From Verrucomicrobiota bacterium (GTDB lineage Bacteria > Verrucomicrobiota > Verrucomicrobiia > Verrucomicrobiales > DEV007): DNA of 64,000 nucleotides. Every line of letters begins with the position of its first letter. Positions within the stretch are counted from its first letter, which is position 1. The stretch covers positions 1 to 64,000 of the forward strand of contig JASFYY010000030.1 in NCBI GenBank assembly GCA_045046875.1, written 5' to 3'. Below are positions 34,427-50,941 of the stretch, in pieces. The position numbers were made by a program, and so were the translations under genes. The notes below the pieces were generated by a model. It made no database searches. It saw only the letters and a list, made by a program, of their open reading frames with translations, and was not told the origin of the DNA.

Positions 34427-34705
34427 ATGGAAAATGAAATTACTAAACGGCGGACAAAGTGGAAGTATGTTTTTGGAATTTCAGTGTTATTTCAGTGCGG
34501 CTTACTGCTTGGATTATATGGCATTTATTTAGGAGGCCAGGTTAGCTTATCGGGGCTTACTCCTACTACTTCTGATGAAGGAAAAGAAATGATCAAAGGC
34601 GGAATGGATATTGCCTTGCAGTCTCTGCTAGCAGGTATAACATCCTTCTCAGCAGGAAGTTTCCTTATGATATTATCAAGACATAAGTTAGAGGAAACCA
34701 AATAA
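34427..34705 (+). CDS. Hypothetical two-TM membrane protein
   Basis: 92 aa, two hydrophobic helices. Confidence 0.55.
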   Translation: MENEITKRRTKWKYVFGISVLFQCGLLLGLYGIYLGGQVSLSGLTPTTSDEGKEMIKGGMDIALQSLLAGITSFSAGSFLMILSRHKLEETK

Positions 34706-39702: not shown

Positions 39703-41304
39703 ATGTCTCGCACATCATATAGCTATTTGATTCTGGCGGTTTTTTTTCTGGTTGGTTTTTTCTTACCAGGAATGGTTTTCTCAAAAAACAAACCGCCCAA
39801 TATTCTCGTTATTCTGACGGATGACCATCGCTGGGACGCATTGGGATTTTTGGGACACCCTTTTCTTAAAACTCCCAATCTTGACCGCATCGCAAAGGAG
39901 GGCATTCATTTTTCCAATGCTTTTGTCACCACGTCACTGTGCTCACCCAGCCGCGCATCGATCTTCACAGGGCGTTACGCTCACAACCACCGGGTGGTTG
40001 ATAATTACAATCCACTGCCAAAAGGGCTGATCTACTTTCCCCAGTATCTGCAAAAAGCAGGTTACGAAACCGCGTTCATCGGCAAGTGGCATATGGGCGG
40101 TGAAGTGGATGATCCGCAGCCTGGCTTTGATCATTGGATCAGTTTCAAAGGGCAGGGGGTGTATTTTGATGATCCGGAGCAGGCCAAAGTGAAGGGGCGT
40201 TATGTGCCGCAGGCGGTCAATGATGGTTATAATGTTGATGGCAAACGCAGGCCACAAAAAAAATACATCACTGATGAGCTCACCCGTTTTGCGCTCGATT
40301 GGTTGAAAGAGCGACCACCTGGCGAAGACAATCCGCCGTGGCTGTTATATTTGTCCCATAAAGCCGTGCACGCTGATTTCATCCCCGCCAATCGCCATGC
40401 CTTCCAGTATGAAAAACAAGAGTGGACGGCACCGCAATCGTGGTTTGATAATCCCTCAGCTTTTCGTGATGTGCCTATGTGGGTACAAAATCAGCGCAAC
40501 AGCAGGCATGGGGTTCAGTTTGCTTATTATGGCGACCTCGATCTCGCCACTTACTACCGTAGATATTGTGAAACCTTACTGGCGGTGGATGAAACAACAG
40601 GAACTCTGATGGATACCTTGCGACAACGTGGTGAGCTTGATGATACTGTTATTTTGTATCTCGGTGACAATGGATTTTTATTCGGCGAGCACGGACTGAT
40701 CGATAAACGTTGCGCTTATGAGGATTCGATTCGCATCCCGATGCTGATGCGCGCCCCGATGTTCAGCAAGGGCGGACGCACGATCGAACAAGTGGTCGCC
40801 AACATCGACATCGCGCCCACTTTACTCGACGTGGCGGGCATCAAAACTCCAGAACAAATGGACGGCCGTAGCTTTTTGCCGCTGGTGAAAGGGGAGCCAA
40901 GCGAATGGCGGGATTATCTGTTATACGAATATTACTGGGAGCGGAACTACCCCCAGACCCCGACGATGCACGCGCTGCGTGGGGACCGCTTCAAGTATGT
41001 GCGTTATCATGGCATCTGGGATGTGGATGAACTTTACGATCTCATCGCCGACCCGAAAGAGAGCACCAATCTGATCAATGACCCTGAATACGCTGACACA
41101 GTGAAACAACTTAATCACCGCCTGTTTGAAATTCTTGAAGAGACCGGAGGCAAATCCATGCCGGTATTAAATGATCACGGCACCAAATTCCTCCACCGTA
41201 AAAAAGGAGGCACGCCAGCCGCTGAGTTTCCTAATTGGTTCGAACGTCAGCCGGATTCGCCGCGAGGTAAAAAAACTAAAGACGTAAAAAAAACGGCAAA
41301 TTAA
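39703..41304 (+). CDS. Formylglycine-dependent sulfatase (S1)
   Basis: NILVILTDD, CSPSRAS, GKWHMG, DNG. Confidence 0.93.
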   Translation: MSRTSYSYLILAVFFLVGFFLPGMVFSKNKPPNILVILTDDHRWDALGFLGHPFLKTPNLDRIAKEGIHFSNAFVTTSLCSPSRASIFTGRYAHNHRVVDNYNPLPKGLIYFPQYLQKAGYETAFIGKWHMGGEVDDPQPGFDHWISFKGQGVYFDDPEQAKVKGRYVPQAVNDGYNVDGKRRPQKKYITDELTRFALDWLKERPPGEDNPPWLLYLSHKAVHADFIPANRHAFQYEKQEWTAPQSWFDNPSAFRDVPMWVQNQRNSRHGVQFAYYGDLDLATYYRRYCETLLAVDETTGTLMDTLRQRGELDDTVILYLGDNGFLFGEHGLIDKRCAYEDSIRIPMLMRAPMFSKGGRTIEQVVANIDIAPTLLDVAGIKTPEQMDGRSFLPLVKGEPSEWRDYLLYEYYWERNYPQTPTMHALRGDRFKYVRYHGIWDVDELYDLIADPKESTNLINDPEYADTVKQLNHRLFEILEETGGKSMPVLNDHGTKFLHRKKGGTPAAEFPNWFERQPDSPRGKKTKDVKKTAN

Positions 41305-41343: not shown

Positions 41344-42069
41344 TCAGACTTCGCAAGCAGGGGAATTCTGGATCGTTTTGTCGTGCTTGATTTTGCCCAA
41401 TTCCAAACGGTTGATGGTGAAACTGTATAACTTAAGCGGTACAAAAAACAGGATGAAGAGCGTAATAATAGACAAAAATACTCTCCAATCACCGAATTCT
41501 AGGAGGTTACCGTTTTCACTTTCAAAAAGGTGATCCGACATGAGGCCGTAGTAGTCAAACAGGGCAGCAATCAATACGAACAACTGAAGCGCCATGATAG
41601 CAAAGGGCCATCGGCCGATCACATTCTTAAAACTATCGACAGAAAGTCCTTCGCGTCGGAGAAAAAACGATACCAGTGACATGTATAGCGGAAGGCCGAT
41701 CAACATGACAAAAAGCATGCTGATTGGAGATTTGAAGTCGGGCATGAAACTGTCAAGAAACAGTGAAACTCGGCCAACCGACATCACCATGGCAAAAAAG
41801 GTAAAGATGCCAATCAGTCGTCGAAAGTTAGCTTCCGTTTTTTTACGCAAAAGCTGATAGCCATAATGAAAAGCCAAAATTCCGGGGCTGAGTTTCAGAA
41901 TGAAAGAAGAGAACACAGTTAGATAACTCCAGAGCCCGTATCTAGGCGAATAATAATCGGAGCTCAATTCCGCTGCCGCTAGAGTCCAAACAGCGCAATA
42001 CCAAACTCCGAAAATCATCGCCGCAAGAGCAAGCAGATTGCTGAATTTGATGCCTTTGAGGTATTTCAT
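41344..42069 (-). CDS. Hypothetical multi-TM membrane protein
   Basis: 241 aa, about six hydrophobic segments; ATGA overlap with the upstream ORF. Confidence 0.6.
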   Translation of the reverse strand: MKYLKGIKFSNLLALAAMIFGVWYCAVWTLAAAELSSDYYSPRYGLWSYLTVFSSFILKLSPGILAFHYGYQLLRKKTEANFRRLIGIFTFFAMVMSVGRVSLFLDSFMPDFKSPISMLFVMLIGLPLYMSLVSFFLRREGLSVDSFKNVIGRWPFAIMALQLFVLIAALFDYYGLMSDHLFESENGNLLEFGDWRVFLSIITLFILFFVPLKLYSFTINRLELGKIKHDKTIQNSPACEV

Positions 42070-42425
42070 TGCTTCAAGGGAGCTTGAGTGAGAGTCTCGG
42101 TTGAATCCGCAAATTTAAGCTCATTTTCAGCAAGTGAAAAATCATCACCGCAGTATGGGCATTGATTGATCGAGTGAGCAAGTTCAGGGATTTGCAAATG
42201 ACCTTCACTGGGCAGCATCGAGATGCATTGGTCACAACTTGGGCAGCGATCACGTTTTTCGAACACTCGGAAAATAAATCCAAAACCTATTAAGTAAATG
42301 AGGAAAGGGAATCTCTCGTAGTGATTGATCAACCACCAGGAGGAGAGAACCACAAAAACAAGCAGGGCAACTTGCCTGAAAGCAATCGTTTTACGCCGAG
42401 CATTAATTTTATCACGCGAAGTCAT
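42066..42425 (-). CDS. Hypothetical membrane protein with a Zn-ribbon-like motif
   Basis: Two TMs, CPSC...CPYC. Confidence 0.6.
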   Translation of the reverse strand: MTSRDKINARRKTIAFRQVALLVFVVLSSWWLINHYERFPFLIYLIGFGFIFRVFEKRDRCPSCDQCISMLPSEGHLQIPELAHSINQCPYCGDDFSLAENELKFADSTETLTQAPLKQ

Positions 42426-42508: not shown

Positions 42509-42536
42509 ATTTCACATTACATGTAGTGTGCGATAC
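42509..42536 (-). other. attL: dif-like hybrid site with a degenerate XerC-type arm
   Basis: ATTTCACATTA-CATGTA-GTGTGCGATAC; 42507-42533 matches 50912-50938 at 26/27. Confidence 0.85.
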
Positions 42537-42550
42537 AAGGAAGTAACATG

Positions 42551-42796
42551 TTAGTTAACAGTATGCAAATCCTTAAGATATGCAAGCCTTGCTGAGCGGT
42601 AAAACTTGTATTCTCGCAAGCTTTTTATTCCATAATAACGCCGCCCAGAACAGCGTATAAACTTTACTTCTCCCTTAACCGCTAATTGGTTAAGACGAGG
42701 GCGGCTAACATCAAGCATAGTCATAGCAAGCGTAGGCGGAAAAATTCCATCTTGCTCACGTTGAAAGCTAAGAAACCTTGAATGACCACTAGCCAT
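42551..42796 (-). CDS. Prophage Xis/MerR-type HTH DNA-binding protein
   Basis: AMTMLDVSRPRLNQLAVKGEV...GRRYY resembles excisionase-type winged HTH. Confidence 0.6.
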   Translation of the reverse strand: MASGHSRFLSFQREQDGIFPPTLAMTMLDVSRPRLNQLAVKGEVKFIRCSGRRYYGIKSLREYKFYRSARLAYLKDLHTVN

Positions 42797-42829
42797 GATG
42801 AAGCGTCAGACTAGACGCGGTGAACGGAG

Positions 42830-43105
42830 TTTTAAGAGATAAAACAGCCAATTTTGTTTTATGGAAATTAGAATATAAGGACAAAAAAAATTTCATTTTA
42901 ATTATTTAATCTTACTAAATTTAAAGTAAACCGAACTAAAGAGCAAGCGAAAGCGCCCACATGGGCGTTGACTCTGCAAATTAAGAAGGGGTTTGCCACC
43001 CCAAACCCCGCTAAACTGATGCAGTTTAATCCAATATTGCCTGCCGGCGGCTTACCCCCTCCGCCCCCTAAAGGGGGAACGGGAGAAGTCGTTTAAGAGA
43101 TAAAA
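42830..43105. promoter_or_regulatory. Prophage intergenic region with clustered hairpins (candidate origin/packaging signal)
   Basis: Hairpins at 42954-42967, 42988-43009, 43012-43028, 43064-43077; located after the secretin gene like the Ff intergenic region. Confidence 0.55.
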
Positions 43106-43339
43106 ACTAAATTCCATTCCAGCAATATTCATAACAACCTTAAAATAAGACAGTTAAAAGGCCATTGAAAAACAGTTTCCCAGGCAAAAGACAATATCCA
43201 AAAAACAAAAGCTTAAGGATGGTTGCCAAGACGACGAAAAGACAAAAGGAAGCCTAGGGCGGCAACCCTTTCTAATTTTTTATTAGTGCTTCGCAGAAAA
43301 AAAGGACATTCATTTTTAATAAGTTCCAAATAATCGCGC

Positions 43340-44587
43340 TTATTTATGCCTCCTAGATGAAAGAAAAGACTTCTTTAAAGTTTTTTTACTCGATGAAAAA
43401 GGCAGTTTGAAGCGTGAAAACAGCTTTTTACGGGGTTTTACAGGCTCAACGGGCAGTTGCATAGGGTCAAAAGTGGCAAGGGCAGGGGAAACAGATTCTG
43501 CAATCGCTGGGACAACTCGAAGCAATAACGCAATCTCACGCCGTGCATTTGATTCATCCTTTTTAAAACCAATCCCAAACAAACCCTTTTGTTTAAATTT
43601 ACGCACCTCCTGACCCTTTAACCCTCCAACGGCATACCATTTGCCCAAAACCGGACGAAAACGACTCTCCCAGACCTGTGAAGCTATTTCCGGTATCAAA
43701 TTGCCGTCAATCTCAGTTTCCCCGGCTACATCCTCAGATATTTGATTCACATTGATTTCAACGCCTGATCCCAATTGCACCAAATCAACAGTAAGAGTAA
43801 GAGCAACGCGCCGAAACTCGATGGAGTTCCGGACATTACCATTACCTTGTTGATCAGAGATAGGAACGGCAATTTCCCGCCCAGATGAAATTTTACCAGT
43901 TTCGCCACTAGAAAGAATAATTGAAGGCCTAGCGACCACATCGAGCCTACCGGAATCCTGTAAACGATCAATTGCTAGCGTGAGCCAATCCGTTTTTAAA
44001 TCCAATCTGCCCGGAGAACTTAAAATTGAATGATTATCAAAACTAAGGCGATCACCTTCCGAATATTTCAGAACCCAATCAAGTGAAAACTTTTCGCCAT
44101 TAGAAATATTAGCAAAACCGATAACAGCCTCAACTCGATACTGATCACCAGCAATATCAATAGCGCCTAACATAGCTTCAATCATTGGAGCCTGGTCCTC
44201 ATCCAATCTGACAATCACTTGATTGCCTACTGGATTAATCATCCAATCAATTCGCGTATTGGTTCCAGAGTTTTGACGGAAAAACTCAATATTAGGAACA
44301 GCCCTATTAACGAATTTGCGAACAATAACAACTTGTTCAGATTTCTCTGATGGGTCAGAAACAGGGGCAGGGGAGGGGAGCAAAGGTTTTTCAACCATTA
44401 AAGGCTGTGGAGCTTTTTCTTGCTCATCATCCAAACCAGTTTTTTCTTTTTCAGAATCATTTTCAGACTCTGCGCGGGCATCCATGGAAGCGCCTATAGC
44501 ACCAAACAAACCGCGACCGCTAGAAAGCCTATTTTTAACACCCCAACCGATGCCAACCAGCAACAACACTACTATTAATAATTTCAT
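43340..44587 (-). CDS. Phage secretin (pIV-like)
   Basis: ARPSII..SGETGKISSGREIAVP...IEFRRVALTLTV...VGGL...REIALLL secretin pattern; AAGGAG RBS; follows pI. Confidence 0.85.
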   Translation of the reverse strand: MKLLIVVLLLVGIGWGVKNRLSSGRGLFGAIGASMDARAESENDSEKEKTGLDDEQEKAPQPLMVEKPLLPSPAPVSDPSEKSEQVVIVRKFVNRAVPNIEFFRQNSGTNTRIDWMINPVGNQVIVRLDEDQAPMIEAMLGAIDIAGDQYRVEAVIGFANISNGEKFSLDWVLKYSEGDRLSFDNHSILSSPGRLDLKTDWLTLAIDRLQDSGRLDVVARPSIILSSGETGKISSGREIAVPISDQQGNGNVRNSIEFRRVALTLTVDLVQLGSGVEINVNQISEDVAGETEIDGNLIPEIASQVWESRFRPVLGKWYAVGGLKGQEVRKFKQKGLFGIGFKKDESNARREIALLLRVVPAIAESVSPALATFDPMQLPVEPVKPRKKLFSRFKLPFSSSKKTLKKSFLSSRRHK

Positions 44588-45341
44588 TTTGTGACTCCTT
44601 TTTTACTCTCATTTTAACCAAGATAGGAAATTCAAGCTCGAGCAAAGCTATAATCCTTTTTAAAACACTAACCTTTTTAACTTGCCGTCTTTTAATTCGG
44701 GCACGCTGATTTTGTGCCATGCCTTGCATAAGTGAATCTAGCATAGCCTCCGTTTTGTAGCAGCGACCAACGGACATAGTGAACCGCGCAAACTTACGCC
44801 GCATAATCAAACCCGATTTAGCATCTCGACAAACCCAAACAAATATTTGACCGAACATTTTACCAATCAAAGGAAGAGTAATATGTTTTAAATTCACTGC
44901 CGACCAAATCACTTGAGACTGTTTTCTGAATTGTGAATTCATCGTGGTTTTGTCCTGGGTAATGAAAATAACATCAACCCCCGCTTTACGACTTTGAGTT
45001 AAGAAAGAAAGCATATCACCATCTTTTGATTGCGTCTCTTTCCACTTATGCGCGTTATACCAAAGATGCCCCTCGTCAATCGTAACGAGAACAGGACATT
45101 CAAGAGAGCCCCAGTCTACAAGTTTCCACCAATCTGTTAAACCATCAGCAACAGGCAAACTTTTTAATTGTTTCGAATCAAATTCAACCCCATAGCGCGC
45201 CGCTAAATAACGAGTCACATGATCATGGTCAAATTCAATATTGGTAAAAGCCGTACCGCCAGCAGCTAAATGCTCAATCGTATTGACTACAGCCAAATAA
45301 GTTTTACCACCCCCGATTTTCCCCTCAATTATAGAAATCAT
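44535..45341 (-). CDS. Phage morphogenesis ATPase pI (Zot family)
   Basis: GKIGGGKT Walker A, VTIDEGH Walker B, SRKAGVDVIFITQ motif. Confidence 0.92.
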   Translation of the reverse strand: MISIIEGKIGGGKTYLAVVNTIEHLAAGGTAFTNIEFDHDHVTRYLAARYGVEFDSKQLKSLPVADGLTDWWKLVDWGSLECPVLVTIDEGHLWYNAHKWKETQSKDGDMLSFLTQSRKAGVDVIFITQDKTTMNSQFRKQSQVIWSAVNLKHITLPLIGKMFGQIFVWVCRDAKSGLIMRRKFARFTMSVGRCYKTEAMLDSLMQGMAQNQRARIKRRQVKKVSVLKRIIALLELEFPILVKMRVKKESQNEIINSSVVAGWHRLGC

Positions 45342-45346
45342 TTTTA

Positions 45347-45670
45347 TTAATTAGCGACTGTTGGAATAAAGCTTTTGATCCAACGAAACAAAAGCAACGC
45401 TGAAAACATGGTGAAATACGCAAGGCTCATTGCGAGAGTTTCAGACAAGGCAAAAAAATGATTCACTAAACCCGAAACCTCAGCAACAGCGCTGAAATTC
45501 AGATTAGAAAACATCATTTGCGACGAGAGAAAAGAAGCAAAATTTACAAGCAAATCTGCAAGCATACCAGTAACCGATTCAATCACGGCAACCACTGGCA
45601 AAACGAAAAGACTAAGTTTAGCTAACATTTTAGCCATAAACTCAGCAATCCTAACTAATAACAAGGCCAT
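45347..45670 (-). CDS. Minor coat protein pVI-like
   Basis: 107-aa hydrophobic ORF between pIII and pI, ending RWIKSFIPT. Confidence 0.7.
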   Translation of the reverse strand: MALLLVRIAEFMAKMLAKLSLFVLPVVAVIESVTGMLADLLVNFASFLSSQMMFSNLNFSAVAEVSGLVNHFFALSETLAMSLAYFTMFSALLLFRWIKSFIPTVAN

Positions 45671-45673
45671 GTT

Positions 45674-47440
45674 TTATATTTTTAAAGTTTTATAGGACAA
45701 CGTGAGAAAACCGACACTCATAAAAATGAGAGTGCAAAGCCGAACCATGCCCCAAACCGAACTTGTGAAATCCAGCTTTAAAGGAAAATTTGCACCTAGA
45801 AGAGTAAAACTTTTATCAATCATAGCCACGTCACCCGAAAAGGCCGGAATCGTAGGCAATGACATAAATTTACCATTATCAGAAAGACTATCTTTCAAAA
45901 TTTCCAAATCATTAAATGAATCAGTTAAAGCTGTAGCAGATTCTACACCCGACAAATCTCCCGATTCCATATCGAGATTATTAGCATAACCCAAAGCCTC
46001 AGCGTCAATACGCCGTATTTCACCAGCAACATCACCATCACCCGTAATTTTTACACTTGATGAATTATCAATCTCTGTAATTTCTGGTGGAAGGGGAATA
46101 GAACCCGTAAAACCATTAGTGTTTGAAACCGTAGTTGAAGTAGTCCCGTCTGGATTTGTTGTAGTGACGACCTGACTAGCCGTGGTTGAGCCGTCCGAGC
46201 CAATCACAGAAGAACCCGATGTTGTGACCGTTCCAGACCCGCCAACAATTGCACCACGTAAATTGAGCTCAGAAACACTAAGAGTTCCACCGCCGATTTG
46301 CTCAACCGGCGTACCTGATTGAGTCGTGACAGTTAATCCAGAAGCCGACTCTAGCGCATAATTCCTATCAACAGTCGTCTGACCATTGCCAACAGCAATC
46401 GTTTCAACTGGCCTTTCACCGTCTTGGATAACTATAATTTGTGGAGCTCCAGATTGATTGTCAACATTAAGCCGCACAGTAAAATCATCAGCAGGGTTAA
46501 AAGTCAAATTCCCCGCCGATTGAGTACGCGTAGATGCACCAACCACAAAAGAAGGATCAAAAGAAGGATCAAGAGCACCAGTAGGAACAACAAAAATCTG
46601 AGTGCCAGGCGGCAAATCTTGCGAACCGGAAATCTGCAAAGTTTGCCCAGGAGCGATATCAATAGCTCCATTTGTTAAACTAATTTGCTGCCCATCAGGA
46701 GTCAAAGCAAAGACCTCCAAAGACCGTGTGGTATCGTCATTATTAGTGACCTGATAATCAAAATCAAGACCCTCAATTTCCGGGGGAGCGGCAGTAGAAA
46801 CACCTGGCCGACCAGTTGCCGGAACCTCAATAGAATAAAGATTAATACCCTCAACAGGAAAAGAAATCGAACTAGAAGTAACAGACCCCAAAGAAATAGA
46901 AAGGCCAACGGTTACACTGCCAGAAAGTAACAATTCAAAGGAAACACTGTCCAGAATAGTCTCTGAATTATAATCGAGCAATTGAAACGTACCAAAAATA
47001 GAACCCTCAGCAATAACATTAATAGGCGGGTCAGTTGTCTGAGGATAAAGCCTGCCATCATCTGACCCCGCTGTACCATAACTTTTAAAACCTCTAACAG
47101 TATTAAAATTATGAGTTAAAGCGCGAATGCTCTCAGCAGGAACGCTAGTGGCGATTTTATCAACACTCAGCGCATAAATTGCATGTTGACCAGAGTCTAA
47201 AAGAATTCGAACTTTAAAATGCTTTTGAGTCAACGCCTGATTGTGCACATTAAAGGGAATATTAGCACTCTTAAAACTAAAAATTGCCGCACCAGAAACA
47301 ACCGTTCCATCATTAAAAGTTAGATTTTCGCCTCCCAAATATTTACGAGAACCCGTAAAATCAGTCGTTATTTTATAGCCCTGAGCGGCTAACTCACTTG
47401 ATAAACCAAGAATTAATACCGTAAATACTAACAAGCGCAA
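45674..47440 (-). CDS. Receptor-binding minor coat protein pIII-like
   Basis: Probable TTG start at 47440 (MRLLVFTVLILGLSSELAAQ signal peptide, GGGGGG upstream); beta-rich body, G/S/T linker, C-terminal TM; syntenic position. Confidence 0.75.
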   Translation of the reverse strand: MRLLVFTVLILGLSSELAAQGYKITTDFTGSRKYLGGENLTFNDGTVVSGAAIFSFKSANIPFNVHNQALTQKHFKVRILLDSGQHAIYALSVDKIATSVPAESIRALTHNFNTVRGFKSYGTAGSDDGRLYPQTTDPPINVIAEGSIFGTFQLLDYNSETILDSVSFELLLSGSVTVGLSISLGSVTSSSISFPVEGINLYSIEVPATGRPGVSTAAPPEIEGLDFDYQVTNNDDTTRSLEVFALTPDGQQISLTNGAIDIAPGQTLQISGSQDLPPGTQIFVVPTGALDPSFDPSFVVGASTRTQSAGNLTFNPADDFTVRLNVDNQSGAPQIIVIQDGERPVETIAVGNGQTTVDRNYALESASGLTVTTQSGTPVEQIGGGTLSVSELNLRGAIVGGSGTVTTSGSSVIGSDGSTTASQVVTTTNPDGTTSTTVSNTNGFTGSIPLPPEITEIDNSSSVKITGDGDVAGEIRRIDAEALGYANNLDMESGDLSGVESATALTDSFNDLEILKDSLSDNGKFMSLPTIPAFSGDVAMIDKSFTLLGANFPLKLDFTSSVWGMVRLCTLIFMSVGFLTLSYKTLKI

Positions 47441-47558
47441 TAAACCCCCCAAGAATTGTCGAAATACCCTCGTTGAAAATCGCAATAAAACCCGTTGCAG
47501 GCTCATTGATTTTTTGAAGCTCTGCCAAAATTTGAGTAAGTAATTCATTATCAGTCAT
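47394..47558 (-). CDS. Small single-TM phage protein (minor coat pVII/pIX-like candidate), 54 aa
   Basis: MTDNELLTQ...ISTILGGFIALVSIYGINSWFIK; overlaps the pIII start. Confidence 0.55.
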   Translation of the reverse strand: MTDNELLTQILAELQKINEPATGFIAIFNEGISTILGGFIALVSIYGINSWFIK

Positions 47559-47569
47559 TACGTAAAGGG

Positions 47570-47944
47570 CTAAGACCAATCAGCGTCGTCTGGATGCGAG
47601 TCTCTCAGAAACTCTTGATATGCCGCCTCATTTTCCTCTGCGGTCATTTCGTTTCCACTCGCATCATAAAAAGTTTGAGGTTCAGCACTCAGTAAATCAC
47701 CATCATCATTGTAAGAATATTCAACGCCATTCTCAACATATTGATTAGGATGAGCAGATTCATTCATACCGTGTAAATCCCAATCCTCCATTTGTTCTTG
47801 TAAATAATCATCATCACCATTAACTAAAATTTTAAAAGTGCTGATGACTTTCTCAACTACAAAAAGAGTAATCACAGCAATCAAGCCACCCAATAAAAAA
47901 AGTTTTATTTCAGAATCCGCGTAATCAAAAAGAGTATCAAACAT
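47570..47944 (-). CDS. Phage protein with N-terminal TM and highly acidic C-terminal domain
   Basis: LFLLGGLIAVITLFVV followed by a D/E-rich tail. Confidence 0.65.
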   Translation of the reverse strand: MFDTLFDYADSEIKLFLLGGLIAVITLFVVEKVISTFKILVNGDDDYLQEQMEDWDLHGMNESAHPNQYVENGVEYSYNDDGDLLSAEPQTFYDASGNEMTAEENEAAYQEFLRDSHPDDADWS

Positions 47945-47969
47945 AAGAATAAATAGATTAAATTAAATA

Positions 47970-48007
47970 GTTTTAAGAGGGGATGAATAAACACCCCCCC
48001 TTAAAAC
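47970..48007 (-). terminator. Hairpin after the major coat gene
   Basis: Minus strand GTTTTAAGGGGGGGTG-TTTATT-CATCCCCTCTTAAAAC; position equals the Ff post-gene-VIII terminator. Confidence 0.65.
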
Positions 48008-48015
48008 GATCAACC

Positions 48016-48231
48016 CTAGCTGATGATGCGTTTAGCAGCACGCAGCACGAACACGGCACCAATCACGATACCGACCACAGCAACAGCGGCAGGAATCACC
48101 AAGCCAAGTTCAGTGGAAATGTCACCAGTAGCAGTGACAAGATCAGCACCAACACCAGCCTGAGCTGATCCAGAAGCCAACAACGATGCACCCGCAAGAG
48201 CGCCCAACAGCATGTTTTTATTTTTTTTCAT
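48016..48231 (-). CDS. Major coat protein (pVIII-like)
   Basis: 25-aa signal peptide ending AQA; 46-aa mature protein with acidic N-part, TM and basic RAAKR end. Confidence 0.88.
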   Translation of the reverse strand: MKKNKNMLLGALAGASLLASGSAQAGVGADLVTATGDISTELGLVIPAAVAVVGIVIGAVFVLRAAKRIIS

Positions 48232-48251
48232 GTTTTTCTTATTTTGTCTAA

Positions 48252-48356
48252 TTAACCGCCGACAGCATCAAAAACCAGCCTAACCCCAGATATAACTACG
48301 CCAACAGCTCGCAAACCGAACCAAAGCAAAATTAAACTGGAAGCTGTCAATACCAT
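48252..48356 (-). CDS. Small hydrophobic ORF (34 aa), pIX/pVII-like; not in the ORF track
   Basis: Manual translation MVLTASSLILLWFGLRAVGVVISGVRLVFDAVGG*, immediately upstream of the coat gene. Confidence 0.6.
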   Translation of the reverse strand: MVLTASSLILLWFGLRAVGVVISGVRLVFDAVGG

Positions 48357-48372
48357 CTATAAACGATTAAAT

Positions 48373-48552
48373 CTATAATGCCGCTCCCCGTGCTACCTCG
48401 GCAGGAGTCACCAACCGAGAGCCCGCAGTCATAGGGAGAAGCAAAGTTTCACTAGCTTTCAAATCTTTTAAAATTCGATAAGCTAAAATTCTCAATTCCT
48501 TACTTTTTTGGATACTCTGAAAACAGAGTTTTTTAATTTCGTTATTGTTCAT
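48373..48552 (-). CDS. Small phage protein (59 aa); not in the ORF track
   Basis: MNNNEIKKLCFQ...EVARGAAL*; ATGA overlap with the upstream 65-aa ORF. Confidence 0.55.
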   Translation of the reverse strand: MNNNEIKKLCFQSIQKSKELRILAYRILKDLKASETLLLPMTAGSRLVTPAEVARGAAL

Positions 48553-48746
48553 CCTTCAAGGAATTTAGTGGGAACATCTTTGAAGAAATCAATGTGGACT
48601 GATTGCAATTCCGCATTTTTCTTTTCCTTCACATGATCAGTTGTATGATTTAAATACTTTTTTAAAAAATCATCATCAGAAGCACCGAGCGCATAACATT
48701 CAAACTGTCTACCATCGGCATCTAAACAAATAAATTTAACTCTCAT
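48549..48746 (-). CDS. Small phage hypothetical protein (65 aa)
   Basis: Co-oriented ORF within the prophage gene run. Confidence 0.55.
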   Translation of the reverse strand: MRVKFICLDADGRQFECYALGASDDDFLKKYLNHTTDHVKEKKNAELQSVHIDFFKDVPTKFLEG

Positions 48747-48842
48747 GTCAATTAAGTTTTATTTTAACAAGGAAAGGAAACCCGCTTTCCTCGGTGTGCT
48801 CTCGCAAGCTCGGCACAGTCGAGGTAAGCGGGTAATCCTTAT

Positions 48843-49217
48843 TTAAACTATCTTGATGTCTCCCATCAATTCAGGATTAGACCCTTGGTTAGTATTCGCA
48901 CTAGTGACATTGATTTCAACTGCCGCGAATTGGGGCAGGGGAACCAATGAACCAGGCGAACCCTCTTTTGCCTCTGCCATCTGTAGATGTGAAAACGAGC
49001 CTTTGCCGTCTGAAATCTCAGTGGTGACACGCTCCCAACATTTGCCTGACTTTGCCATCTTAGGCGGTGTATGGACTGACGTGACAACTAAGCCACAAGC
49101 TATCAAGCCGGTACGGTCACTGAATTTATCTTGGAGAATTCCAGCGAACATTTTAACCATTGGGCTTTCATCCGATTTATTCCCTGCCTGTCTTTCGATA
49201 ATAAGTTTTTCTGCCAT
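48843..49217 (-). CDS. Probable ssDNA-binding protein (pV-like)
   Basis: 124 aa, beta-rich, directly after Rep; assigned mainly by synteny. Confidence 0.55.
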   Translation of the reverse strand: MAEKLIIERQAGNKSDESPMVKMFAGILQDKFSDRTGLIACGLVVTSVHTPPKMAKSGKCWERVTTEISDGKGSFSHLQMAEAKEGSPGSLVPLPQFAAVEINVTSANTNQGSNPELMGDIKIV

Positions 49218-50044
49218 GATTCTATGTGTTTTTCAATGTTTTTTGCCGCTGTGTAGTATTGTTTGTTATACGGCAGCGACGCTTTACCGATAAAAACCAG
49301 ATTGTTTAAATCTGTAAAAAATGTTGATTTGAGGGATTTTAATCTTGTGACCTGTGAGCCTAAATACCTGTCCTGTGAGTCTCTAGCAATCAGCACTACA
49401 CAACACGCCCAACGGTCTAATTTTGCGCGCACTGTCCATGGTAAAAGACAGCTTTTCGGTTCGAGCTTTTTTTTTAGCTCAGTATCAATATTGCCAGTGT
49501 AAAAATGTGGGGACGTTTGCCAGAATCGCGCACGGTCGAACGTTTTTCCATCGTCGCCCTGATAATCAGCGAACCAATCAGGGATGGTGGAATTTGAACC
49601 ATCGGGATTTTTGAAAAGGTATTTGAACATATAGTCCAACGTTGCGCCCTCGATGCGTTTGATATTGACGCGACCCAATCCCCAAAACTCGCTGACCATC
49701 TGCATCTCAAACACGGTTAGTTTGCGAGTTATAGACATAGCCATGTGCCAATGTACCCAGCCATGATTCAAACCATTGCCGCCGTGAAATTCCATCTTCC
49801 AACAATGTTTAATCTCGAAATGGTCACCAAATTGCATTTTCATCATCGCGTTAAATCTACGCAAGCGGTCTAACCCTTTGAAATAACCGTCTACCTCATC
49901 CACAAATAGATCAGGATTGAGAGTTAGGGTGATGAAACGCCAATTTGTCATATCTGGCACACCCTTAGCAAGTATCTTGTTGCGCATCATCCGCACACCT
50001 TCGGGAGTAAACCAGTTTGGAAATTTGTAGTCTCTGATTTCCAT
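49103..50044 (-). CDS. HUH-superfamily rolling-circle replication initiator
   Basis: Motif I FITLT, motif II WVHWHM, motif III YMFKY. Confidence 0.88.
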   Translation of the reverse strand: MEIRDYKFPNWFTPEGVRMMRNKILAKGVPDMTNWRFITLTLNPDLFVDEVDGYFKGLDRLRRFNAMMKMQFGDHFEIKHCWKMEFHGGNGLNHGWVHWHMAMSITRKLTVFEMQMVSEFWGLGRVNIKRIEGATLDYMFKYLFKNPDGSNSTIPDWFADYQGDDGKTFDRARFWQTSPHFYTGNIDTELKKKLEPKSCLLPWTVRAKLDRWACCVVLIARDSQDRYLGSQVTRLKSLKSTFFTDLNNLVFIGKASLPYNKQYYTAAKNIEKHIESWQKNLLSKDRQGINRMKAQWLKCSLEFSKINSVTVPA

Positions 50045-50045
50045 A

Positions 50046-50378
50046 TTATCCGAGTTGTAAGTTTTCCTGTGTTTCCACGGGACCCAATAAATCCAAAATC
50101 AAGCCACGCAGGAAAATAACTACGGCATAACGGAAACGCCCCATATGACAAAAAAATCGGCGTCCATCATCCATCAAAATTAACCACTCCCCGAGCCCTA
50201 AATATACGGCGACGCATTTGCGGTGTGAAATCGTCTCGTTACGATAACAAAGCTCGAATAATAGAGCGGGGGGAGCGGTTGGCAAAACCTCGAATTGAGG
50301 TTTGCATTTCTGGCGAGAAAAATCCCGCGGGTCGGAAGAGATCAAATCAATGATCCCAATTTCTGGCTGGTCTGCCAT
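50046..50378 (-). CDS. Phage hypothetical protein
   Basis: 110 aa, abuts the Rep start. Confidence 0.5.
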   Translation of the reverse strand: MADQPEIGIIDLISSDPRDFSRQKCKPQFEVLPTAPPALLFELCYRNETISHRKCVAVYLGLGEWLILMDDGRRFFCHMGRFRYAVVIFLRGLILDLLGPVETQENLQLG

Positions 50379-50528
50379 ATCTTATTTTGTCTAGTAAAAA
50401 CGGGATTACTTAAGTCCCGTTGTCCGAATCAATCGAACGACACCAGAAAACACCAAATAAAAGAAAATGTCAAAATAAAAAAAACAGAGCAGCGAAACCG
50501 AAAGACAAATCGAGCCTCTAAAAAAGAA

Positions 50529-50681
50529 TCAAATAATGAAATTCAGCAAAGATTTCTCCAAAGCGCCAAAGATTAAATACCTAACCGCAAAGTAAAGAAT
50601 AACCAAAATAGGAATAGTTAGGATGGCAGATAAGCAACTACCCAAACAGCTTTTTTTACCAGCTTCCCAATTCAATTTCAT
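50529..50681 (-). CDS. Small single-TM phage protein (50 aa); not in the ORF track
   Basis: MKLNWEAGKKSCLGSCLSAILTIPILVILYFAVRYLIFGALEKSLLNFII*. Confidence 0.4.
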   Translation of the reverse strand: MKLNWEAGKKSCLGSCLSAILTIPILVILYFAVRYLIFGALEKSLLNFII

Positions 50682-50740
50682 AATTCAAAAATATAATTAA
50701 AAACAAAACCCGAAAAGAAAATCAAACCGGAAAGAGCATT

Positions 50741-50776
50741 AAAAAAGCCTTCTGGGATTAAGTAGTCCCAGAAGGC
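50741..50776 (-). terminator. Rho-independent terminator-like hairpin just inside attR
   Basis: GCCTTCTGGGA/TCCCAGAAGGC 11-bp stem with T6 on the minus strand. Confidence 0.7.
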
Positions 50777-50913
50777 GTATGAAGGTAACTAGCCTTCTTC
50801 GCGCCCAAAAGACTAGACAGGGATAAGAAACCCTTGGAAAACCCTTGTGCGCTTATAGACACCATAAACGCACAAAGCCTGATAGAGCAAGGGGAATTAG
50901 AACAAAAAACCCG

Positions 50914-50941
50914 ATTTCACATTACATGTATTGTGCGAAGT
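50914..50941 (-). other. attR = reconstituted chromosomal dif site
   Basis: Minus strand ACTTCGCACAA-TACATG-TAATGTGAAAT; 11-6-11 layout resembling E. coli dif GGTGCGCATAA-TGTATA-TTATGTTAAAT. Confidence 0.85.

Follow-up and report, generated by a model that had tools for sequence, protein, structure and literature searches.

The 64,000-nucleotide stretch examined here (the window; positions 1 to 64,000 of contig JASFYY010000030.1, Verrucomicrobiota bacterium assembly GCA_045046875.1) carries an 8,405-bp inovirus prophage at positions 42509..50941, which is probably a filamentous, temperate phage inserting itself at the dif site of its host by means of XerC and XerD, recombinases of that host, that is, a mobile element of the integrative kind that exploits Xer (IMEX). 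The prophage encodes no recombinase, is inserted at dif with dif regenerated, and is accompanied in the genome by candidate XerC, XerD and FtsK proteins, a combination that points to an IMEX, the dependence on Xer being drawn from Vibrio. Its attachment site (att) is a single 28-bp sequence in which the centre and the XerD arm are copied from dif and the XerC arm is degenerate.

All 14 open reading frames (ORFs) lie on the minus strand, from 50681 to 42551, and occupy 84.7% of the 8,405-bp unit (Table 1), forming the single gene run that an earlier note on this DNA had described. Rep, pI and pIV matched Pfam families above the cut-offs (PF23343, E 2.8e-9; PF05707, E 2.5e-14; PF00263, E 3.5e-11), and the M13 pI and pIV families of PHROGs were matched at E 1.9e-12 and E 1.8e-23 respectively, so that profile searches bore out the naming of pI and the secretin. 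The motifs TLT, HWH and YxxKYxxK, which we take to be the HUH motifs, were invariant in all ten aligned Reps, and Walker A and B of pI were kept in a 29-sequence alignment; structure comparison found no solved relative of Rep. The 71-aa ORF matched major coat families of PHROGs weakly (E 0.005-0.008). It would yield, after removal of a signal peptide, a mature protein of about 46 aa with a single hydrophobic segment (hydropathy 2.8-2.9 from residue 44) and a basic tail, and it agrees with the published description of inovirus coat proteins as 30-90 aa long with one membrane segment (PMC6813254). Pfam and PHROGs gave no family for pV, pIII or pVI, which were assigned by position, hydropathy and similarity to the syntenic genes of relatives, and a fold search gave no fold for pIII; as had been expected, proteins beyond Rep, pI and pIV are without firm families. 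A pI ATPase, a short coat protein and a rolling-circle initiator, with a size of 8.4 kb that fits, place the element among the inoviruses (Tubulavirales).

None of the 14 ORFs is visibly broken, and the lengths of Rep, pI and pIV approximate those of relatives once over-long ORF calls in the latter are allowed for. The G+C content is 41.2%, as against 51.0% for the genome, and T makes up 33.2% of the coding strand, in line with the AT-richer composition and T-rich coding strand noted before. Third-position T reaches 43-51% in the genes for pVIII, pIII, pVI, pI, pIV and the helix-turn-helix (HTH) protein described below, whereas the range across four host genes is 22-32%; neither Rep nor pV (26-28%) has the bias seen in the other phage genes. 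The earlier description of an intact prophage of about 8.4 kb, with Rep, coat protein, pIII, pVI, pI ATPase and secretin, holds at the level of sequence, and the prophage is genuine and probably recent.

The prophage ends are a 27-nt direct repeat whose copies are 96% identical and 8,405 bp apart. When up to eight mismatches were allowed, the right-hand site was found twice in the whole 5.59-Mb assembly, at the two ends of the prophage. It differs by one mismatch from the single dif of four of five congeners, both sites of the present genome having the centre TACATG and the four congeners TATATG. Congener G094 has an empty site between the same sulfatase and SNF2 genes, with both flanks 97% identical; because this site joins the same two flanks, the boundaries are real. 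The 8,405-bp spacing reported earlier therefore stands, but the repeats had not been recognised as chromosomal dif, which by sequence and context is what they are. For Methylacidiphilum and Akkermansia, Kono et al. give predicted dif sites that are very like these and have the same orientation (PMC3025954). The strand polarity of the octamer GGGNAGGG, which resembles an FtsK-orienting polar sequence (KOPS), switches across the element (three forward and no reverse copies to the left, none forward and seven reverse to the right), as does that of 25 polar octamers (32/3 to the left, 1/47 to the right). None of the eight tyrosine-recombinase matches in the genome lies on the contig of the prophage; among the host candidates, XerD was the best profile for L004 and XerC for L005, and FtsK is present. 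Two observations weigh against this placement: cumulative GC skew peaks at 34,613, some 8 kb to the left of the element, and the NCBIfam scores of the recombinases fall below the cut-offs (305 against 335 for XerC, 325 against 330 for XerD). Given the empty site in a congener, the flip in KOPS polarity and the lack of a phage integrase, insertion by host XerC/XerD is most likely.

The same evidence bears on whether the locus is phage at all. A secretion-system island or a chimeric assembly might be imagined, since the best folds found for the secretin model are secretins of the type III secretion system, type IV pili and the type II secretion system, ranking before f1 pIV. The HUH Rep, the coat protein, the pVI-pI order and the M13 pI and pIV matches argue otherwise, as do the dif-flanked ends, the unoccupied site of G094 and a gene order that recurs in named genomes, and this explanation is largely refuted and highly improbable.

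Some further features of the host sequence were recorded. Between the sulfatase gene and dif (41344-42425 in the window) lie two AT-rich membrane ORFs in a variable spot; the 119-aa ORF is 56% identical in G094, compared with 97% DNA identity of the flanks, and the 241-aa ORF is unmatched. Both ORFs fall beyond the left site, and a homologue of the 119-aa one is present at the empty site, so that they were rejected as phage cargo. Contig C83 of the same assembly has a second peak-type GC-skew switch near 40,170, which lacks a dif-like site, is mixed in KOPS polarity and may reflect an inversion or misjoin. Locus L006 (G000:C117:19633-20235) is an integron integrase fragment above the TIGR02249 cut-off.

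The site at the far end from Rep, here termed crippled, has four changes in the XerC arm, one of them at the base adjoining the cut (position of the cut as in PMC4246890). This layout recurs. Among 21 elements with both ends visible, the XerC arm had 2-9 mismatches (median 7), the XerD arm had at most two in all 21, and the 6-bp centre was identical in 19. The innermost base of the XerC arm was altered in 20 and was C in 16, arm position 4 was still T in 16, and position 10 was still A in 14: the degenerate XerC arm is not random. On contig L080, the HTH gene, att and Rep are linked in the way expected of a circle or a tandem copy. No described class with a degenerate XerC arm was found in a literature search whose coverage excluded most subscription journals and bioRxiv supplements. 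Several points weigh against the generality of the layout. The 21 pairs were found with a matrix of the XerD half or by best match to the dif of each host, which favours it, and the elements are partly related (L221 and L223 share 2.65 kb at 84.5%). L114 is of the opposite type, L021 has three centre changes and L226 an unchanged innermost base, while L117 and L122 are bounded by tRNA-like repeats instead of dif. Scored with Vibrio motifs, the right site gave 18 as read and 17 flipped, and the left site 15 either way. L119 has a repeat of another, unassigned kind, and no site pair was detected in L113, L116, L120 or L121.

Such an arm raises the question of how many strand exchanges take place. 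XerD alone might make one exchange, with replication resolving the junction in a mirror image of the VGJphi/CTXphi route, and the changed innermost base would then disable XerC cleavage. The near-universal change of that base accords with this, as do arms that differ at 8-9 of 11 positions and the viral contigs L023, L078, L079, L083 and L085, in which the centre and XerD arm are present but an XerC arm cannot be recognised. A single exchange would, however, need homology only beside the XerD cut (by analogy; PMC4246890), whereas in 19 of 21 elements the full 6-bp centre shows no change; arm positions 4 and 10 are mostly retained; and one exchange would not give both ends the same centre variant. 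A route by XerD alone is thus rather unlikely. Two reciprocal exchanges fit the data because the 6-bp centre is identical, and the TACATG shared by both ends fits a phage having replaced the host sequence in repeated cycles or by repair, drift in the host being the alternative.

Other arrangements of sites were seen in relatives. In G384, around L114:13374, two inoviruses (L114 and L115) stand back to back at one dif, copying its XerC half and XerD half respectively. Arrays of crippled sites occur on one flank of an intact dif at L063:3987-17204 (Haloferula luteola), L065:11066-11424 and L086:13162-15570, which suggests successive insertions growing from the dif side. Lone copies of an 11-bp XerC-arm word with a palindromic core occur inside the prophages L220-L223, and the word recurs on the reverse strand some 1.2-1.4 kb beyond dif; it may be a regulator site. 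The element at L021:4509-13146 (G113), besides its three centre changes, has a long membrane-anchored pI and no secretin or HTH match, and may be VGJ-like.

The crippled site is separated by 15 bp from the end of an 81-aa HTH gene. The earlier account of gene content, though right on the main genes, had missed this gene between the secretin and the left boundary. ORF calls in relatives are longer (105-162 aa). The predicted structure (predicted local distance difference test score, pLDDT, 91.7) is a MerR/Xis-type winged helix; top matches in fold searches included BldC and mycobacteriophage Xis, none at E 0.001 or better, and comparison with the Atlas gave HTH_17 at 0.93. A profile of the protein had 72 matches among 1,347 candidates. 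The gene adjoins att in 15 of the 21 elements, and when 21 of 26 loci were scanned a half-site lay 23-286 bp downstream in 11 of 14 strong matches and in none of seven weak ones. Against a general role at att, six of the 21 elements are without the gene, and comparison with VGJ ORF136/XafV showed no similarity (probability 0.3%), so that homology to XafV, for want of any alignment, was rejected. A switch for excision or replication in the manner of XisF4 is the likelier role. XisF4 and XisF5 of Pf4 and Pf5 are small excisionases of filamentous prophages, which promote excision and replication (PMC7379572); the likeness would be one of role. Units of 1.8-2.2 kb at or near dif (L227:4051-5870, L228:5400-7236, L225:1868-4041) contain the HTH gene, a half-site and unrelated cargo, with no Rep or pI. 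They were considered as satellites, but decayed prophage remnants are likelier because of the unrelated cargo and the damaged HTH copies.

The HTH gene also bears on which arm is which. The assignment of the arms was made by homology and is very probably correct, the XerC-side arm being that of the predicted Methylacidiphilum dif (PMC3025954). Were the arms reversed in Verrucomicrobiales, the degenerate arm would be that of XerD, and the site would therefore be of the ordinary type of TLCphi and the gonococcal genetic island (GGI), with the HTH protein a new activator. Vibrio motifs fit the flipped site almost equally, and xafT and xafV adjoin attP as the HTH gene adjoins att here (bioRxiv 10.64898/2026.06.12.731946). 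The predicted Methylacidiphilum dif nevertheless combines the same XerC-side arm with a near-canonical XerD arm (10/11), and the HTH protein has a predicted Xis/MerR fold, whereas XafT consists of an XRE-HTH and DUF3653 (PMC6744903), a domain for which Pfam gave no match among the 14 prophage ORFs. Reversal is accordingly quite improbable.

All four GGGNAGGG octamers of the prophage point to the intact dif, with none on the opposite strand (4:0), a direction that corresponds on the free circle to the XerD side of att. Inside 19 elements, 61 copies were directed towards and 10 away from the intact dif; resampling of synonymous codons gave 30:15, and the observed excess was reached in none of 200 resamplings. 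The look-alike octamers GGGNTGGG (9:15) and GGGNCGGG (23:33) lean the opposite way inside the elements. GGGNAGGG had no such lean in 30 distant viral contigs (16:21) and stood at 12:1 in ten partial or circular-looking members. FtsK has to reach the site from the XerD side, and the oriented octamers can be taken as hinting at integration driven by FtsK. XerD requires an activator (PMC6744903); one review states that no reported IMEX depends on FtsK (PMC4246890), and another that GGI insertion is FtsK-activated (PMC5357621). The literature search described above found no KOPS-guided phage integration. Three considerations weaken the argument. The octamer GGGNGGGG also leans towards the intact dif inside the elements, more weakly (36:22); look-alikes in the host genome are nearly as skewed (876:119 and 728:99, against 885:57 for GGGNAGGG), so that GGGNAGGG is only a candidate verrucomicrobial KOPS; and selection for host segregation, acting once the phage has integrated, would predict the polarity equally well.

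Such selection forms part of another explanation, by which the prophage would be trapped and inactive, its degenerate arm and short pI the products of decay or drift. The decayed HTH-att remnants in relatives are in keeping with this, but the element has no broken ORF, a composition far from that of the host and no counterpart in the 97%-identical congener, and the short pI and degenerate arm are common to divergent elements and circular-looking contigs. We regard a trapped prophage as improbable.

The identities given earlier to pI and the secretin were correct, but their altered architecture, a short pI and a secretin with no N0 domain, had been overlooked. All 16 pI proteins that accompany a separate secretin are 234-290 aa long, and nine have no hydrophobic C-terminal segment; that of the element (268 aa) has a C-terminal hydropathy of 1.79, borderline for an anchor. 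The secretin is modelled as a helix (residues 2-20), disorder (18-82), an N3-like domain and the barrel. Among family-sized secretin matches within the best 150, the N-terminus was hydrophobic in 67 of 76, and of those 67 only seven had AxA and two a lipobox. A profile of these N-termini matched the membrane segment of a long pI in the neighbouring secretin-less group at 17.5 bits; host control ORFs scored at most 10.7 bits, save one at 22.0 that is probably the element's own pIV. The simplest reading, on balance slightly favoured by the model and profiles, is that the inner-membrane anchor now resides on the secretin. Fusions of pI, anchor and secretin exist (P0191, P0248); the fusions L037, L047 and L053 belong to a distant clade of the pI tree and are for that reason parallels rather than demonstrated ancestors. 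In f1, the N0 domain of pIV contacts pI/pXI (bioRxiv 2021.07.20.453082). Counting against the anchor, a hydrophobic tail is present in four of the 16 short pI proteins, the secretin model is weak (pLDDT 60.6), and the distinction from a cleavable signal peptide relies on a motif heuristic. A frameshift fusing pI to pIV was rejected, as the frame offset varies among relatives. The literature search found no description of an anchored-secretin architecture. Also encountered were many proteins of 2,000-5,500 aa, candidates for a giant secretin family (P0158, P0161, P0162, P0164 and others), each matching in 10-30 stretches and resembling a secretin at its C-terminal end.

The host is probably a member of the Verrucomicrobiales. 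RpsA of the window is 78% identical to that of Haloferula luteola, 81% (partial) to that of an Akkermansiaceae metagenome-assembled genome (MAG), 69% to that of Chthoniobacter and 48% to that of a Bdellovibrionales MAG. These identities place the host in Verrucomicrobiota, as proposed before, and its dif agrees with this in resembling those predicted in the literature for Akkermansia and Methylacidiphilum. Among 50,697 records of isolated phages there was no blastn match to the element and no tblastn match to Rep. In isolated phages pI was 25-33% identical over at most 56% of its length (best 40 of 49 matches), in keeping with the divergent lineage suggested earlier. The closest metagenomic pI was 56% identical (29 matches among 495 candidates, self included). 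A scan of viral contigs with the single pI sequence found nothing, and one with the pI alignment gave 40 matches. Of seven genome loci found by the alignment, six are titled Verrucomicrobiota. The seventh, the 7.1-kb contig L064, is a member of the short-pI clade in a Bdellovibrionales MAG, through mis-binning or a host jump. A tree of pI, built by a quick method from 66 rows after eight truncated rows were dropped, placed the element within an 18-row short-pI clade (Shimodaira-Hasegawa-like approximate likelihood ratio 86, not strong). Relatives are uncommon, occurring in two of 133 other genomes of the family and in 13 of 400 genomes sampled across the phylum; one (L063) resides in the cultured, named species Haloferula luteola. 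The assembly itself contained no second inovirus and no spacer-like match.

The novelty claimed earlier for an inovirus in such a host was overstated. Roux et al. predicted four Verrucomicrobia inovirus species of 5.7-11.9 kb, three of them placed in the proposed Vespertilinoviridae Sf_20 (PMC6813254), and Lentisphaerae strain WC36, a cultured member of the Planctomycetes-Verrucomicrobia-Chlamydiae (PVC) group, is reported to shed filamentous particles, its inovirus being present also in strain zth2 (PMC11361711). What remains of the claim is that the literature search found no filamentous phage isolate from Verrucomicrobiales.

Among known systems, phiRSS0 of Ralstonia (Restivirus, JQ408219) is also filamentous and has a dif-like site with 10 of 11 positions of the XerD motif and four of 11 of the XerC motif. 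The element shares this half-site layout, which is a matter of layout and not of taxonomic membership: in phiRSS0 the site is located within ORF13, and the last 105 aa of that ORF product gave no match to the HTH profile, no secretin is annotated, and the host is a betaproteobacterium. TLCphi and the GGI resemble the element in their single double-stranded att with a centre near-identical to dif and one degenerate arm (PMC4246890, PMC5357621), but there the degenerate arm is that of XerD, and TLC encodes XafT; here it is, by homology, that of XerC. The working dif lies on the side of the host XerC arm here, whereas the new dif in Vibrio lies on the other side (bioRxiv 10.64898/2026.06.12.731946). 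VGJphi is filamentous, with a single dif-like attP and a small HTH gene beside it; its att, however, is 29 bp long with a mismatched centre and is used by XerC only (PMC4246890), and its ORF136/XafV cannot be aligned with the HTH protein. The prophage site does not have the VGJ-type combination of two good arms with a centre mismatched on the XerD side. CTXphi, another integrase-less inovirus at dif, requires a hairpin formed from two inverted sites; neither a hairpin nor a partner dif-like site was found in the prophage, and a CTX-type att was rejected. Pf phages differ in encoding their own integrase. Ff phages (M13, f1, IKe) have in common with the element a pI ATPase followed by a phage-encoded secretin, but in f1 the inner membrane is crossed by pI/pXI, which attach to N0 of pIV (bioRxiv 2021.07.20.453082), whereas the prophage pI is without the periplasmic domain and N0 appears to be replaced by a helix and linker, so that the Ff-type pairing of a pI with membrane segment and periplasmic domain and a pIV with N0 is not found here. 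The att sites of enterobacterial gokushoviruses vary in the spacer and XerD arm (PMC7062461) and for that reason offer no precedent. The Verrucomicrobia inoviruses of Roux et al. share the host phylum, and the main text and supplements of that study, as far as available, contain no mention of 'XerC', 'dif site' or 'fused' ('fusion' was searched in the main text). Precedent thus exists separately for the host phylum and for the half-site layout; the conserved substitution at the cut site, the KOPS polarity, the att-linked excisionase-like gene and the anchored secretin were not found described in the literature searched.

Integration through host XerC/XerD could proceed as follows. A double-stranded replicative circle would pair att with dif. 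The first strand exchange would be made by XerD and the second by XerC, which cooperative binding would assist on the weak arm, an order to which we give a little better than even odds. That FtsK switches XerD on, steered to the XerD side of att by phage KOPS octamers, is possible but falls short of an even chance. After integration the Rep end would hold a functional dif and the opposite end a crippled copy, in which the altered base beside the XerC cut site may slow accidental excision. The Xis-like protein encoded beside att has about an even chance of being the switch for excision or replication. For export, the secretin would, in a reading we marginally prefer, carry the inner-membrane anchor that pI/pXI provide in M13-type phages, and span the envelope by a flexible linker in place of N0. 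Whether all these features define a fourth class of Xer-exploiting elements, with the XerD half kept, XerC cleavage damped by a conserved base change, integration driven by KOPS and FtsK, direction controlled by an excisionase-like protein and a secretin in the role of the pXI anchor, is doubtful, and the class is offered tentatively.

Table 1. Predicted features of the prophage, in window coordinates.
Feature	Position	Strand	Basis or remark
Putative chromosomal dif, regenerated, made up of host XerC arm, 6-bp centre and phage XerD arm; Rep end	50914..50941	-	One mismatch to dif of congeners
50-aa ORF, one hydrophobic segment	50529..50681	-	Weak match in one viral contig (L024, E 1e-5)
110-aa ORF, doubtful gene	50046..50378	-	No family match or convincing homologue; little codon bias
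Rolling-circle Rep, HUH endonuclease	49103..50044	-	PF23343 and HUH motifs
pV-like ssDNA-binding protein, by position	48843..49217	-	31% over 89 aa to syntenic gene of L021
Two small ORFs: 65 aa (48549-48746), 59 aa (48373-48552)	48373..48746	-	
Probable major coat protein pVIII, 71-aa ORF	48016..48231	-	Weak PHROG coat matches, hydropathy
Two membrane ORFs, candidate minor coat proteins: 124 aa with acidic tail (47570-47944), 61 aa (47394-47579)	47394..47944	-	Position, hydropathy
pIII-like adsorption protein, 624 aa	45674..47548	-	Hydrophobic C-terminal end like long syntenic ORF of relatives
pVI-like minor coat protein	45347..45670	-	25-50% local identity to gene preceding pI in relatives
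pI assembly ATPase, short form, 268 aa, no periplasmic domain	44535..45341	-	PF05707, phrog_1675
pIV secretin with a hydrophobic helix at the N-terminus, then a disordered linker, an N3-like domain and the secretin domain; N0 absent	43340..44587	-	
543 bp between genes, several hairpins; candidate for an origin or packaging signal	42797..43339	-	
Excisionase/MerR-type winged-helix protein (predicted), 81 aa	42551..42796	-	Stops 15 bp short of crippled site
Crippled dif copy (phage XerC arm with 4/11 changed, including innermost A->C; identical centre; host XerD arm)	42509..42536	-	
Four GGGNAGGG octamers at 43480, 44365, 44370, 48933	43480..48940	+	

The three IMEX classes studied mechanistically all come from Vibrio and avoid FtsK, and none has a degenerate XerC arm. 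The 21 natural att pairs, with their conserved substitution and oriented octamers, make it testable how an element can enter dif yet resist excision by dimer resolution. If the anchored secretin is real, a secretin with its own inner-membrane anchor would represent a simplified trans-envelope assembly machine, and the relative in Haloferula luteola could yield a characterised filamentous phage for Verrucomicrobiales.

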